A stretch of DNA of 63,169 nt, counting the filler, from Parachlamydiales bacterium (GTDB taxonomy: Bacteria > Chlamydiota > Chlamydiia > Chlamydiales > Parachlamydiaceae), in NCBI GenBank assembly GCA_020051075.1. It is 3 parts of 3 records of this genome, joined end to end, with 100 filler letters (N's around TTAATTAATTAA, not from the genome) between each part and the next. Parts side by side here need not be neighbours in the genome. Positions count along the whole stretch, not along the records: positions 1 to 24,385 come from JAGVJP010000051.1; 2 more parts are not named here. One strand, written 5' to 3'. Below, piece by piece: positions 93 to 6,942 of this stretch (the stretch's first letter is position 1; every line of letters begins with the position of its first letter). Below the pieces are notes generated by a model that searched no databases, was not told the DNA's origin, and worked only from the letters and a program-made list of their open reading frames with translations. The translations under genes and the position numbers were made by a program.

Positions 93-1208
93 CTATGGAG
101 CCAAGCGAACAGCGTTGAGGTAGGCAGAGATTCCTGTCGAGCCTGTAGCACCCGCATTAGTAGGAGGATTTAAGAAGAACAAATCTCCGCTCGTATTATT
201 TAACGAAACAGCATAGCCAACACTTGTCACAGGAAGAAGAAAAGTTTTAGAATTCAACTCATTTATGCTAAAATTCGTTCGAAAGACTGTTAAAGCTGAT
301 CCATCTAATTCGCTTCCAACTAGGATGTTGCTTGAACCGTCAACAAGAGAGAGTTGATTTGACTCACCTTTAGAAAGTGAACCAATCGAAACCACACTGC
401 ATTTTCCGTAGACGAGAAGATAAGTCCCTGTCACTGAAAATACCAGCTGGCCTGTTCCTGGGCTATAGGTAATCCCAGAGGCTGAGGTGGCAACCGTGTT
501 AAAATGAATCGGCTGATTATTGAGTAATGTCAAGTCTGATAGTACGCTTGGGATAAGTTGCAACGATGCCCAAGGATCGGTGAAATTAATGAATTGTTGA
601 CTCCCTCCGGGTGTGCCGGTTGGTCCTGTATTTCCAGTGGCACCTGTGATCCCTGTTGGACCAATAGCTCCCGTGTTTCCGGTGTTACCGATAGCGCCAG
701 TGGGGCTTATTCCCGTAGGACCAGTCACGCCCGTAGCGCCTGTAACCCCAATCGCACCGGGGGTGCCTGTATCACCGACAGCACCGGTTTGACCTGTGTT
801 GCCATCAGCTCCATCCAACCCCGTTGCTCCTGTATTGCCAATGGCGCCAACCGCGCCCATTGCCCCCGTCGGGCCTGTAGGGCCTATTTCTGCACCGGTT
901 GCTCCGATAGGGCCAGTCGGCCCCCCTGTGCCGGTATTACCCAAAGGCCCGGTGTTGCCTTGCGTACCTATCGTTCCTGGAATAGAAGGTCCTATTGCTC
1001 CAGTGATACCCATCGGACCGCGATGCCCTCTGCGTCCTATACGCACTTTCTTTTTGTCTATGCGCTTTTTTCTTTGCACCTGATTTTGTTCCAAAGAGTG
1101 GGGGATATTGATGTCACTAATTGGGAAATTCGTTTGGGAGTCAGCAGGGGCTGTGAGAGTGATAAGAATGGCAAGAAGAGAGAGAGTTCTCATGATTTTT
1201 GAATTCAT
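93..1208 (-). CDS. Secreted collagen-like protein, chain type A, copy 1, with C-terminal C1q/BclA-like domain
   Basis: Signal-like N-terminus; [18 protein letters not shown] then ~47 Gly-X-Y triplets; beta-rich C-domain ([15 protein letters not shown]). Start set at the ATG overlapping the upstream TGA (alternative 1193). Confidence 0.9.
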
Positions 1209-2281
1209 TTGTCGCCTATGAGAATGAGGGTTAGATATGCCGTTACGTCGGTGCCAGCTGAAGGTCCTGTCGCACTCGGATTTGTAATAAAGCATCCGAG
1301 TTGCAGGTCAGTCCCATCTGAGGTGATATTTGTGAGCGAGACCTTATCGTTAGCTGAAAATTGAGAGATGATGCACTGTTGTCCTAACGACAGATTATCA
1401 GCAATCACAGTTTCACTTTCTGGGACAATAGTGACGCCATTCTTCTGTACGGCTAAGCGAATGCCATCGGGAGCTTGACCTGCGCCTGTTAAAGAACATC
1501 CGTAAGACAAAAAATAATTTCCATCAAAAGGGATGGTGACGAAAGTGGCTCCAGGAAGTCCAGCGGTAGAAAAATTGAGGGCGGTAGAAGAACTCATGAA
1601 GGGAATGGAAAAACTTAGAGGAACGACATTACCTCCCGAAATCTGGTTGGCCTGGGTGTATACATAAATATAAGCTTGATTAAGGCCTATCGCCGTTCCT
1701 CCAGGTGCTCCAATTGCCCCAGTGGCTCCAGTATTGCCATTCGGTCCATTAGCCCCAGTGCTTCCTGTCGGTCCGGTTGCTCCAGTGTTTCCTGTTGGTC
1801 CAGCGGTACCAATCGCTCCTATATTGCCAGTCGCTCCAATGGGTCCTGTTTGTCCTATGGCACCCTGCGCACCAGTATCGCCCGTTGCTCCTATTGCCCC
1901 GACTGCTCCTGCTGGACCAGTGTCTCCTATTGCTCCTGTTACTCCGGTGTTTCCTGTAGCTCCTTGTTGGCCTGAAAGGCTGCCGGGTGCATCAGCGCCC
2001 GCTGGGCCCGTGGGCCCTGTGAGGCCAATCGCTCCAGTCTTTCCTTGATTGCCAGTAGTGCCTTTGGCACCAGCCAGTCCTATTGTCGCTGGACCTTGAG
2101 GCCCTTGAGGTCCTTGCGGTCCTCGCTGCCCCCTTGGCCCTCGTCTAGTGTGATCCAGTCGATGGCTCTCGATAGAGCGTAAAGTTGCTTGGTTAGAATA
2201 TTCTTCTAGCTTGTCGTTATCGATAGAGTAAATCTGTAACGGAGCCGTGATCAGTAAGGATAATAGGAGATTTCTAAACAC
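1205..2281 (-). CDS. Secreted collagen-like protein, chain type B, copy 1
   Basis: GTG start with GAGGT RBS, matching the paralog start [25 protein letters not shown]; ~48 triplets; C1q/BclA-like domain ([22 protein letters not shown]). Confidence 0.9.
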
Positions 2282-2291
2282 TAATACCTCT

Positions 2292-3341
2292 CTAAGGTGT
2301 GATTTGCATGATAGTAAGGTAGCCATAAGTGTATCCATTGACTGTATCTGGAGCAAAATCAATGGTAGTTGATGGAGAGGTCACGTTGACTAAGGTCAGT
2401 GCGTCGGAAGCACTCAACAACAGAATAGCAGATCCTGTTGGCATGACAGCAGGATAGATGGAATTTATGATCGTGTTGTTCAGTACAGTGGCGTTTTGTT
2501 GAAGGGCAAAGCTTATTGTCCCGTCGCCAAATCCGATCAGACCATAGTTGATGAGATACATTCCAGTCACTGGGATTGTGATTGTTGGTCCAGGAGGTGT
2601 GTAAGTAAAGGCCGATTGCGCGTCGACAGTCTCAAAGGGAAAGGCAGCTCCAGGCCCTACGCTTGTGACTCCTGTAGAAGTAGAAACGGATAGGAAGACT
2701 CCCATCGCAGCTCCTGTCGCGCCGGTTGGTCCGGTGTTCCCAATCGCTCCGGTGTCGCCTATTGCTCCTGTATCGCCAAGTGGACCCGTTGATCCTGTTA
2801 ACCCTGTTGCCCCCGTTGATCCAGTCTCACCAATGGCGCCAGTGTCTCCTGTTGCACCTGTTGGTCCTATCACACCATTGGTCCCAGGGTCACCAATCAC
2901 CCCTGTGGATCCAATGCTGCCTGGTAAGCCTGCGTTGCCAACAGCGCCAGTGCCGCCAGTGAGTCCGTTTGGTCCTGTCGGACCAGTGGGTCCAGCGGCG
3001 CCTGGACCTATTGCAGCAGCGCCGGTGGCGCCGATAGATCCTATTGGGCCAGTGGGTCCTGTTAGACCTGTCGGGCCTTGGGGACCGGTATTTCCTCGAG
3101 GGGCCGTGGGGCCGGCAGGGCCTTGCGCTCCCGCAGGTCCTACGCGGCCTATTGGGCCGCGGCAGCATGTCTTCTTTCTTGCAGTTTCTAGAGATAAGGT
3201 GGGGATGGAGAACGGCTGCCATTCGCGAAGGGAGTGATTGAAACGACGATAAGGGACCTGTTGTTTTTCCTGTTCGCCAGAGTGGCAGTCAAGAAAAGGG
3301 AATAGCATTGATATCAGAAGGAGGATAGGCTTTGAAGTCAT
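2292..3341 (-). CDS. Secreted collagen-like protein, chain type C, copy 1
   Basis: MTSKPILLL signal; CCRGP; ~49 triplets; C1q/BclA-like domain ([22 protein letters not shown]). Confidence 0.9.
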
Positions 3342-4589: not shown

Positions 4590-4609
4590 GATTTGTGAGT
4601 TCTTCTCTT

Positions 4610-5809
4610 TTATTCACCGATGAGGATCATGTTTAAGTAAGCGGTCACGTCAAAGCCAGGTGCAGCAGTTGTTGAACTTGGATTTTGTACTGTGGTAAAG
4701 CAATCAAGGAACAGGGTGGCCGTTGTTCCTGAGATGCTATCCATTGAGATGTTATTCATTGTGATGACATCACCAGCATTAAGTTGAGAGATAATGCTTT
4801 GTTGATTTAGGGTCCAATTGCTGGCCATATAAACTGCACTTCCTGGGATGGGGTTACCTGTTGCTTGCAATTCGCACAAGATAGTTCCGAGTGGGCTTGA
4901 GGCAACTCCTGAAAGGGAAAATCCATATGACATAAAGTAACTTCCTGTAAAGGGAATTGTCACTGAGGTTGCGCCGGAAATAATTGGAGAGAAGCCAATT
5001 GCGCCGGTATCAGCCATAAAGGGGATAGGGTCTCCAAAGTCGACAGCATTGCTCCCGGAAAGGTAGTTTACTTGTGTGTACACATAAATAGAGGCTTTGT
5101 CAAAGGGTTGAGCAGAACCTCTAGGTCCGGTTGCTCCTGTTTGACCAGCTGGCCCGGGCGTTCCTGTATTTCCTATGGCTCCTGTATTTCCAGTTGGGCC
5201 TGTTTGGCCAGCGGCTCCAGTCGCACCCGTGCCTCCTGTATTTCCTGTCGTTCCAATCTCTCCGGCGCCTCCTGTGATCCCTAATCCTGTAGCCCCTGTT
5301 CCTCCGTCGGGTCCTGCTGCTCCTATCGGTCCAGGATTTCCAGTGGCCCCTGTGTTTCCTGTGGGTTGTATACCAGCATTTCCGGTTGACCCTGTCGGGC
5401 CAGCGGGTCCAGGAGCACCCGTTGGACCAATAATAGCTCCGATCCCTGAAGCCCCTGTTGGCCCCATCGGGCCTGTTGCTCCAGCTGCTCCGGTCATTCC
5501 TTGAGGGCCGACAGGTCCTTGCGAACCAATCTGCCCTATTGCAGCCCCTTGAGCTCCTTGAGGGCCTCGAGGTCCACGACGCCCTCTTGGACCTCGTTTA
5601 GTATGATCCAGGCGATGGCTCTCTATGGAACGATGTAAGGGATTGGGATAAACGGTTTTAAAAGAATTGGGATGAATGTCCCATATTGACCCATTAACAC
5701 GAGGCGGTGGGTTCGATGGATTATTGCGTGTGAGCTTATTTTCGGTTGAGGATAACCTTGACCCTATGCAGAGAAAGAAAGATAAGGATAAAATCAGAGT
5801 TTTAAACAT
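4610..5809 (-). CDS. Secreted collagen-like protein, chain type B, copy 2
   Basis: [23 protein letters not shown] and DVTAYL motifs shared with 1205-2281; ~51 triplets. Confidence 0.9.
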
Positions 5810-5844
5810 TCAAACCTATTTAAATTTTATTGACCGTCAATTTT

Positions 5845-6942
5845 CTAATTTTTTAGCATCATGATTGTGATATAACCCCAATTATATGAAGGAAATCCTG
5901 GTATTTGCGAAGAAAATATCATTGGTTGTGGAGGGTTGTTATAATTAATAAGCGTGAGTTGGTCATTAAAAAGGAAATCTTGGATAAGAGAGCCCGTTGG
6001 CATTGTAGTGATGGTTAGGTAGCCTACAGAAGAATTAAGGATAGTGGAGCCGTTCCGAGAGAGGGCTATACCACTTGCATCGTTAGTTTCACCTTGGCCT
6101 ATAAGACCATAATTGATGAAGTAAATCCCTGTAGCTGGGATGATTATCGTGGTTCCGCCGGAGAAAGTAAAGTTCGACTGAGCGCTGATGGTTGTGAAGG
6201 GAAATGCGGCGAATGCGTTTATTGACATATCGGTTGCTCCAGCAGGGGTATATGCAGACAGGAAGGTTGCTTTACTCTGCCCTGCGGCCCCTGTCGGTCC
6301 TGTAACTCCTATTGGTCCCGTGATCGTCCCTGTTGCTCCCGTTGAACCTGTTAGTCCTGTGTTGCCCGTCATTCCAGTCGCGCCTGTGGCTCCTATTTGA
6401 CCTGCTGCCCCGGTATCTCCTTTTGCTCCAGTATTTCCTATTGCGCCTGTTTGTCCTGTTGCGCCTGTTTGTCCATTGGGGCCAGGATCTCCTGTATTAC
6501 CCCGAGGCCCTTGTGCTCCCGTGTCTCCCGTTGCGCCTATTGGTCCATTGTTGCCAGTTGATCCTTGGGCTCCGGTGTTGCCTATTGCGCCGGTATTACC
6601 GGCTGCTCCTGGTAACCCTGGACCGATTGCATTAGGGCCGACGGGGCCGATCGGTCCGGTAGGGCCAGTGGGTCCTGTTAGACCGGCTGCTCCTTCAGGA
6701 CCGGTCGGCCCTCTTGGCCCTGTAGGGCCTGTTGGACCTGTCGGTCCGACTGGGCCTATGCGTCCAGTTGGGCCGCGGCAGCATTGCTTACTTCTTGCTA
6801 AGGGGAAAGAGGAGGCTATCCATTCATTAGTCGTGTTGTTCAGGTGAAGATAGGGGGGATGGTCGTTTTCTAATGTGTCAGAGTTGCAGTTCACAAGAGG
6901 GAATAGCATTGATAGAAGAAGGATAATGGGTTTCGAAGTCAT
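5845..6942 (-). CDS. Secreted collagen-like protein, chain type C, copy 2
   Basis: MTSKPIILL signal; CCRGP; INYGLIG and MPTGS motifs shared with 2292-3341; ~54 triplets. Confidence 0.9.

Follow-up and report, generated by a model that had tools for sequence, protein, structure and literature searches.

Duplicated C-B-A operons of an environmental chlamydia encode length-matched collagen-like chains that probably form heterotrimeric surface fibres

Results

Two duplicated operons of collagen-like genes

The window, that is, the whole stretch of DNA analysed (63,169 nucleotides, filler included), contains two C-B-A operons of an environmental chlamydia, the host being assigned to this group by marker genes. 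They lie on the minus strand at 93-6963 and comprise six genes for putatively secreted collagen-like proteins, each with a head of BclA/C1q fold. The operons (cassette 1, 93-3350; cassette 2, 3447-6963) are duplicates of one another, and co-oriented genes within them are spaced by 10-35 bases. A 24-base block present in two identical copies (Table 1) suggests that the duplication took the upstream region along; a scan for promoters and terminators returned weak consensus matches only. In addition, a putative glycosyltransferase gene is a candidate source of modification of the Thr-rich rods.

Table 1. Coordinates of the features along the window
Feature	Position	Strand	Details
A1 chain ORF	93..1295	-	start probably 1208 or 1193; signal-peptide-like stretch, patch rich in Lys/Arg, collagen domain ~600-1037, BclA/C1q-fold head
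B1 chain ORF	1205..2362	-	likely start GTG 2281; collagen domain ~1694-2140; main break ~1973-1990
C1 chain ORF	2292..3350	-	start 3341; collagen domain ~2706-3158; main break ~3003-3014
24-base block	3416..3439	-	identical copy at 7010-7033
A2 chain	3447..4589	-	collagen domain ~3945-4430; modelled head matches BclA/C1q/TNF folds
A2 collagen, recent 99-base internal repeat	3996..4208	-	94.7% over 114 bases
B2 chain	4610..5809	-	collagen domain ~5111-5593; BclA_C E 7e-7, under cut-off
C2 chain ORF	5845..6963	-	start 6942; collagen domain ~6274-6774; main break ~6619-6630
Cassette 2 upstream region	7010..7048	-	24-base duplicate block and weak sigma-70-like match (9/12, consensus match only)
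Candidate glycosyltransferase	9825..10703	+	resembles N-terminal domain of human procollagen galactosyltransferase 1 (E 2e-27)

The window chains matched Pfam Collagen with E values of 1e-15 to 4e-23. Thr is the most frequent Y residue (20-31 per chain), and each rod carries 1-4 acidic and 2-5 basic residues. The N-termini are hydrophobic and, as judged by hydropathy only, signal-peptide-like. A Cys-Cys pair precedes the helix in C chains only, immediately so in C1 and likewise N-terminal of the helix in C2, while the A and B chains have no Cys there.

As for the heads, the best fold matches are BclA-type (Foldseek E 1e-7; VIA Z 15.7, rmsd 2.5 over 136), and the model of the A2 head (pLDDT 67) matches 1wck and 9h38. 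Sequence scores for PF18573 (BclA_C) were all under the curated cut-off (E 5e-4 for C1), and the gC1q domain PF00386 reached at best E 0.056 and 14 bits, against a cut-off of 23.7, in one of the six window chains. The A, B and C heads are 23-32% identical to each other and fall into three clades in the head tree, A with starred support of 100/100, B and C with values of 87/88 and 93/99 that fall short of a star. A, B and C are old chain types that persist elsewhere as separate families, each with its own conserved motifs in several organisms.

A common interruption near triplet 16

Scripted counting gave triplet runs of 6, 10, 20 and 11 for A1, 6, 10 and 31 for B1, and, for C1, 6 and 9 around a Gly-to-Ala triplet followed after the break by 33. 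In cassette 2 the runs were 6, 10 and 37 (A2), 6, 11, 7, 8 and 19 (B2), and 16, 33 and 5 (C2). The first-pass annotation had proposed that all six chains break after triplet 16, and they do so closely: the main break starts 50, 50, 48, 50, 52 and 48 residues past the first Gly (A1, B1, C1, A2, B2, C2), that of B2 coming after 17 strict triplets. A break at residue 48-54 occurs in all six window chains and in 11 of 12 full-length homologues. It is unequal across chains, with 1, 3-6 and 4 residues, and from this conserved unequal interruption we infer a possible kink.

The distal segments also agree with the earlier estimate, measuring 31/31/33 triplets in cassette 1 and 37/34/38 in cassette 2, where B2 reaches 35 if one two-residue triplet is counted. 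A second break, proposed after triplet 6, fared less uniformly. It is present in A1, B1, A2 and B2, and the Gly-to-Ala change of C1 was confirmed, but the break is absent from C2 and from two of the four full-length B homologues, and the close C1 homologue P0001 does not have the Gly-to-Ala change. The triplet-6 break is not a three-chain feature. Likewise, the distal breaks of A1, B2 and C2 are chain-specific, with no counterpart in their cassette partners.

Rod length follows the cassette

From the first Gly to the first head strand, the chains measure 155/156/154 residues in cassette 1 and 170/167/170 in cassette 2, and two further trios of the same genome measure 91/91/93 and 70/70/72. Over the four trios, variation within cassettes contributes 13 to a sum of squares of 20,571 (permutation p ~6e-5, the 12 chains not being independent draws), which bears out the proposed covariation of length by cassette. 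Chains can be regrouped by letter in 4 ways, of which the real one has a sum of squares of 8 and the others 235-285. Lengths cluster by cassette while heads cluster by A/B/C clade: rod length follows the cassette, not the family tree.

Cassettes 1 and 2 are offset by 15/11/16 residues, and in the second trio family (contigs C88 and C114) each of the three chains shifts by exactly 21 residues; heads within one of its trios are 25-29% identical. Gene conversion was rejected, since shared DNA tracts are no longer than background: the longest exact match is 12.3 bases within cassettes (12 pairs) and 12.0 in the background (48 pairs). A2 gained its recent 33-residue internal copy with no net change in length relative to its homologue P0005, which has no comparable repeat and measures 171 residues against 170. 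A repeat-collapse artefact is unlikely, given that a long internal repeat exists in A2 only and that independent homologues have the same lengths.

Of 15 clusters of genuine collagen genes in related genomes, 11 are length-matched, three are unmatched (309/60/21, 87/42 and 33/179) and one is ambiguous; matched pairs occur besides trios. In a comparison confined to other genomes and to heads of 30-70% identity, lengths lie within 10% of each other for 18 of 29 same-cluster pairs and for 17 of 174 different-cluster pairs, and equally similar genes that are not neighbours show a median length ratio of ~1.8. In the last 40 regions analysed, one of nine adjacent pairs was matched before inspection. 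The A-type P0006 has a rod of 75 residues, half length, and the C-type P0002 one of ~139; both carry the same value, 8575, for their longest contig, and if they belong to one cassette, they contradict the length rule. Homologues outside the cassettes show a third length common to the chain types (A 141, B 140, C 139), which is weak evidence, as its chance ranges from 0.04 to 0.16 with the null. No orthologous cassette with context was found in scans of two metagenome and two genome collections, nor among 72 family genomes, and the second trio family gave single weak matches only in 299 scored genomes of the order (E 1e-30, at most seven candidates scored per genome).

Structural modelling of the A, B and C heads

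The one candidate assembly modelled with ESMFold2, the A1, B1 and C1 heads with ~10 triplets, scored 0.92, compared with 0.10 for the best of three controls. Of 157 solved complexes 116 attain the pass mark, as do 2 of 215 mismatched pairs, counts that hold only roughly here (own alignments, three chains). Runs agreed in at least 98% of contacts, with partner pLDDT of at least 88, and A contacts both other chains. The score may reflect resemblance to the BclA and C1q trimers already solved, and near relatives of true partners pass as well. Conservation at predicted interface positions did not exceed that of the remaining head residues (pooled odds ratio 1.0, p 0.54) and was lower in C.

Discussion

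All together, these computational data best fit one A, one B and one C chain per mixed triple helix. The shared helix, proposed by the first-pass annotation together with a defined kink, is supported because four trios are matched, conversion is not detected, clusters in relatives are matched relative to the control, and the A+B+C model passes; the kink, like any C1q-like bouquet, is putative. We consider it probable that each operon produces an ABC heterotrimeric surface fibre of ~45 nm, hinged 14 nm from its base.

According to this model, Sec would export the A, B and C chains, the three different heads would select one another, and the helix would zip from the head toward the N-terminus. 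Such zipping means that a length change in one chain would leave an unpaired overhang, so that the change would be selected against unless the partner chains follow. At 0.286 nm per residue, the product would be a rod of ~43-47 nm that bends or flexes at a joint ~14 nm above its base. Its N-terminal foot would be basic, and its three-faced head would probably bind ligands of the host or the envelope. As to origin, a homotrimer gene was probably duplicated, and its co-expressed copies would have kept co-assembling.

The same genes could instead yield three separate homotrimers of equal length, bundled side by side or rising to the same level from a common base. This is an unlikely reading, even if precedent is on its side: described bacterial collagens are homotrimers (PMC8968730), separate collagens with coupled lengths are described for F-Anchor and BclA (PMC12357932), and AF3 applied to the BclA heads of C. 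difficile yielded no heterotrimers (bioRxiv 10.1101/2025.06.24.661383). The null interface test also suits it. Four different matched lengths in one genome (70 to 170 residues), however, leave no single layer height. The tightness of the match (2-3 residues), the division of six adjacent genes into two length classes, each with exactly three members, and the passing model, in which A touches both partners, argue further against it.

Less probable still is promiscuous mixing (AAA, AAB, ABC and so on), in which any co-assembly punishes mismatch and no ABC stoichiometry is fixed. The matched pairs of relatives, the fold common to all heads and the difference of only 11-16 residues between cassettes 1 and 2 would accord with mixing; but A, B and C remain separate families with their own motifs, and within one genome the paralogous cassettes retain distinct lengths, implying that the heads discriminate. 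Finally, shared ancestry or gene conversion alone, with no physical coupling, could draw on a single ancestral gene, inheritable break positions and the equal lengths of close homologues, but is very improbable, because three parallel changes would be required twice (15/11/16 and 21/21/21 residues), equally similar non-neighbours diverge in length and shared tracts do not exceed background.

Returning to the ABC heterotrimer, Bacillus BclA/F-BclA (PDB 1wck, 9h38) resembles the window chains in having an anchor region at the N-terminus, a Gly-X-Y stalk rich in Thr and a TNF/C1q-fold head at the C-terminus, with a glycosyltransferase gene nearby. The solved BclA/F-BclA heads are homotrimers on spores, whereas here three divergent chains with putative signal peptides lie in one operon of a chlamydia, the trios are length-locked with an aligned break, and Pfam BclA_C scores fall under the cut-off.

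Tandem gene order and unequal breaks are features of complement C1q. C1q and the window trios also have in common C1q-fold heads (Z 12.4), an interruption part-way along the stalk and a Cys close to the N-terminus in one chain type. Like the trios, C1q comprises three different chains (PMC2856262), A, B and C. In contrast, the sequence relationship is limited to fold (C1q E 5.4; 10-15% identity), and the window rods are Thr-rich, almost devoid of Lys and ~2x as long, with no Cys before the helix in A and B. Six-stalk bouquets and protease partners belong to C1q and would be speculative for the window trios; we infer an independent origin of the ABC chains. A bolder proposal, that environmental chlamydiae repeatedly evolved ABC collagens independently of animals, with kinked, COLGALT1-like-glycosylated fibres joined by C-chain Cys-Cys links into C1q-like bouquets for multivalent host recognition, seems doubtful to us.

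Mannan-binding lectin and SP-A share a Gly-X-Y interruption, which in them bends the helix (PMC9898670). Mannan-binding lectin, however, is a homo-oligomer with lectin heads, and its stalks spread apart close to the N-terminus rather than at the kink-like site. Bacillus amyloliquefaciens ClpA-D are, like the window genes, adjacent bacterial Gly-X-Thr collagen genes, but their products (228, 665, 416 and 459 residues) are not length-matched; the word "trimer" is absent from the main text of that paper (PMC4319854).

A 2022 review presents the mixed-chain triple helix as a build not used by bacterial collagens, and the literature covered (few subscription journals) describes neither chlamydial collagen-like trios nor a demonstrated prokaryotic heterotrimer. 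Bacterial A/B/C heads of ~150 residues would yield a hydroxyproline-free chain-selection module expressible in E. coli. The trios would also offer a natural example of the unequal (incommensurate) interruption, the structure of which is said to be unknown in section 24 of PMC11923368, and, to evolutionary study, repeated homomer-to-heteromer transitions. The data suggest that environmental chlamydiae possess a family of surface fibres that has yet to be described. Besides ABC, the head tree contains at least five separate paralogue expansions, and Pfam Collagen matches occur in 40 of the 48 family genomes searched with that profile.

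Gene organization and source organism

The window joins three contigs of the genome, C29, C30 and C37, into a scaffold (filler at 24386-24485 and 50962-51061). The marker-gene search returned an LpxG match above cut-off, a histone-like Hc1 match (E 3e-21), three ATP/ADP-transporter genes and a weak OmcB-like match under the cut-off. These genes, which we take to be chlamydial markers, point to an environmental chlamydia.

The collagen genes lie in the order C2-B2-A2-C1-B1-A1, and their likely starts leave 10-35 bases between genes of one trio and 105 bases between trios. Each protein has a hydrophobic N-terminus, then a patch rich in Lys and Arg, and its Gly-X-Y rod ends in a head 137-168 residues long. 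An identical 24-base block upstream of C1 and of C2 indicates that the trio was duplicated as one unit. C29 starts 92 bases beyond the A1 stop (window 1-92), so that genes downstream of the cassettes fall outside view.

Rod lengths follow the cassette

Scripted counting reproduced the triplet counts of the first-pass annotation, which had proposed a common main break and lengths matched by cassette. In each of the six chains the main break falls 48-52 residues past the first Gly; the insert is 1 residue long in A, 6 or 3 in B and 4 in C. From that Gly up to the first strand of the head, the rods measure 155/156/154 residues in cassette 1 and 170/167/170 in cassette 2. The further break after triplet 6 was also recovered in all A and B chains, to which it is confined; the reported Gly-to-Ala change is present in C1 but absent from its close homologue P0001. 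The distal breaks of A1, B2 and C2 are each private to a single chain. A2 carries a recent 99-base internal repeat that its homologue P0005 lacks, yet their lengths differ by one residue.

A genome-wide scan revealed two more three-gene cassettes, of a second family, whose rods differ by exactly 21 residues in every chain. Their rods are uninterrupted except for one Gly-to-Ala triplet, with a Cys near the helix start in all chains, and their heads share 25-29% identity inside one trio. Over the four cassettes, 99.9% of the length variance lay between cassettes, and permutation of length by cassette gave p about 6e-5 for chains that are not independent.

The genome also holds two neighbouring genes with heads related to A/B/C and lacking a collagen rod (C85), as well as contig-end pieces of long, highly repetitive collagen (C73 and C4), perhaps a single gene split by assembly.

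Coordinates of the collagen cassettes and associated features
Feature	Location	Strand	Detail
Six collagen genes	window 93-6963	-	
COLGALT1 N-terminal-domain homologue (human)	window 9825-10703	+	E 2e-27
Secreted-looking protein	window 11015-11632	+	
Second-family cassette	L001 (contig C88) 5640-9233		rod lengths 91/91/93
Second-family cassette	L002 (contig C114) 6219-9154		rod lengths 70/70/72
Rod-less head genes	contig C85 54887-56630	-	E 2e-20, 5e-9
Collagen piece	contig C73 1-1359		
Collagen piece	contig C4 2-955		
Collagen and barrel genes	L003 3387-7208		PF05150 E 1e-32 to 1e-33
Collagen and barrel genes	L039 6834-10804		PF05150 E 1e-32 to 1e-33

Homologues and descent

Word-based and profile searches gave 16 measured non-self homologues, 12 of them full-length; P0007 and P0008 (fragments of the window's own proteins) and P0017, P0018 and P0019 (all rod-less) were set aside. 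Lengths were 155, 171, 141 and 75 for A, 156, 156, 154 and 140 for B, and 154, 169, 153 and 139 for C, plus a truncated C of about 139, two lost triplets being assumed. The main break fell at 48-54 in 11 of the 12 full-length proteins. A length class near 140 recurs in all three letters (chance 0.04-0.16), in weak agreement with co-variation. The exception is P0006, with its 75-residue rod, which may be a member of a second, short cassette, a collapsed repeat or a genuine counter-example; its longest contig is as long as that of P0002, a C-type homologue.

Identity between heads is 41-46% within a letter and 23-32% across letters (main local alignments). In a tree of 43 heads, with poorly supported deep forks and a root that serves drawing only, A (starred), B (87/88, unstarred) and C (93/99, unstarred) form separate clades, each including homologues from other organisms; trios of other genomes form their own clades. 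Since heads group by letter and lengths by cassette, length tracks the operon and not the nearest relative. Rod DNA within cassettes showed no excess of exact sharing (12.3 bases versus a background of 12.0), and hence no sign of gene conversion.

Head structure and trimer model

The A2 head model (pLDDT 67) matches F-BclA, BclA, ExsF, C1q and TNF-family heads. ESMFold2 scored A1+B1+C1 at 0.92, versus 0.10 for the best control; among solved complexes 116 of 157 reach the score mark, as do 2 of 215 mismatched pairs, rates only roughly valid here. Between runs, 98% or more of the contacts agreed, and partner pLDDT was no lower than 88; A was placed in contact with B and C alike, through both rod and head. 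The model supports binding of the three chains, although its pass may be owed to likeness with solved BclA and C1q trimers, and it covered ABC only. Interface residues were no more conserved than the remaining head positions.

In conclusion, the cassettes combine an operon layout, the head fold, length locking and one aligned break; the feature is genuine, and each trio probably forms an ABC heterotrimeric BclA-type collagen. The trios resemble C1q in the aligned break and would do so in three-chain composition, but by sequence the chains are not C1q family members. In the passages cited, prokaryotic collagens are termed homotrimers (PMC8968730), heterotrimers are raised merely as a possibility for Pasteuria (PMC7743900), and AF3 gave none for C. 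difficile BclA heads (bioRxiv 10.1101/2025.06.24.661383). The literature searched yielded no chlamydial case; supplementary gene tables could hold some.

Collagen clusters in related genomes

We parsed 120 regions of other genomes, hand-picked among the matches listed, the first 80 favouring visible clusters; 149 genes were kept and 48 ORFs dropped, 9 for N bases, 12 at a contig end, 24 for a missing head and 3 for a missing N-flank. Adjacent pairs agreed within 10% in length in 15 of 32 cases, versus 2.1 expected (maximum 10 in 20,000 draws): 14/23 in the first 80 regions and 1/9 in the last 40. Parses at other thresholds gave 20/25 (four pairs from our genome included) and 15/24, so the count depends on the placing of rod ends. 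Among heads 30-70% identical, lengths matched in 18/29 neighbour pairs versus 17/174 non-neighbour pairs. These figures are descriptive, as kin are not independent.

On inspection, 5 of 20 clusters were dismissed: two are giant genes with frameshifts, two lack signal-peptide-like starts and one is a probable shadow frame. The remaining 15 comprised 11 matched (for example 79/79/79, 161/163/163, 138/135/138 and 427/429), 3 unmatched (309/60/21, 87/42 and 33/179) and 1 ambiguous. Length matching is common, not universal, and adjacent, independent homotrimers evidently exist as well.

In three unrelated matched trios (L105, L108 and L124) breaks are aligned too, with one chain shifted by exactly one triplet (48/51/51; 27/24/24; 81/78/81, 98/98/101 and 124/124/124). 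Giant collagen genes in L171 and L173 span several frames, probably through sequencing frameshifts in long repeats. In L003 and L039, outer-membrane barrel genes of the Legionella-MOMP type, possible anchors or export partners, alternate with single collagen genes; no such barrel gene lies beside the window cassettes.

Proposed assembly and role

In the proposed heterotrimer, chains would be exported by Sec, heads would select partner chains, the helix would zip C-to-N, the usual collagen route in the cited part of PMC11923368, and selection would act against overhangs. The rod would measure 43-47 nm and be jointed some 14 nm above its base. Unequal interruptions are proposed as helix kinkers in that text, without a solved structure, and in the cited portion of PMC2856262 a kink-like site in MBL does not necessarily give a bouquet. 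Judging by analogy with BclA-type tips (PMC12357932, in the passage cited), we speculate that adhesion to a protist host would be the likeliest role. A Cys-Cys pair, found in C chains only, might speculatively link trimers or tie them to a disulfide-linked envelope.

It is likewise speculation that the COLGALT1-like enzyme, encoded 2.9 kb off, glycosylates the Thr-rich rods. Its homologues occur in 21 of 72 family genomes. In L128 and L136 the homologue lies no more than about 1 kb from a collagen gene, and in L052 the distances are 1.5 and 5.6 kb; the four closest homologues (L145-L148), however, have no collagen inside 1.5 kb. The secreted-looking protein in the window contains a Gly/His repeat and, after it, a tail rich in Tyr and Asn; it has no Pfam match at E 1.
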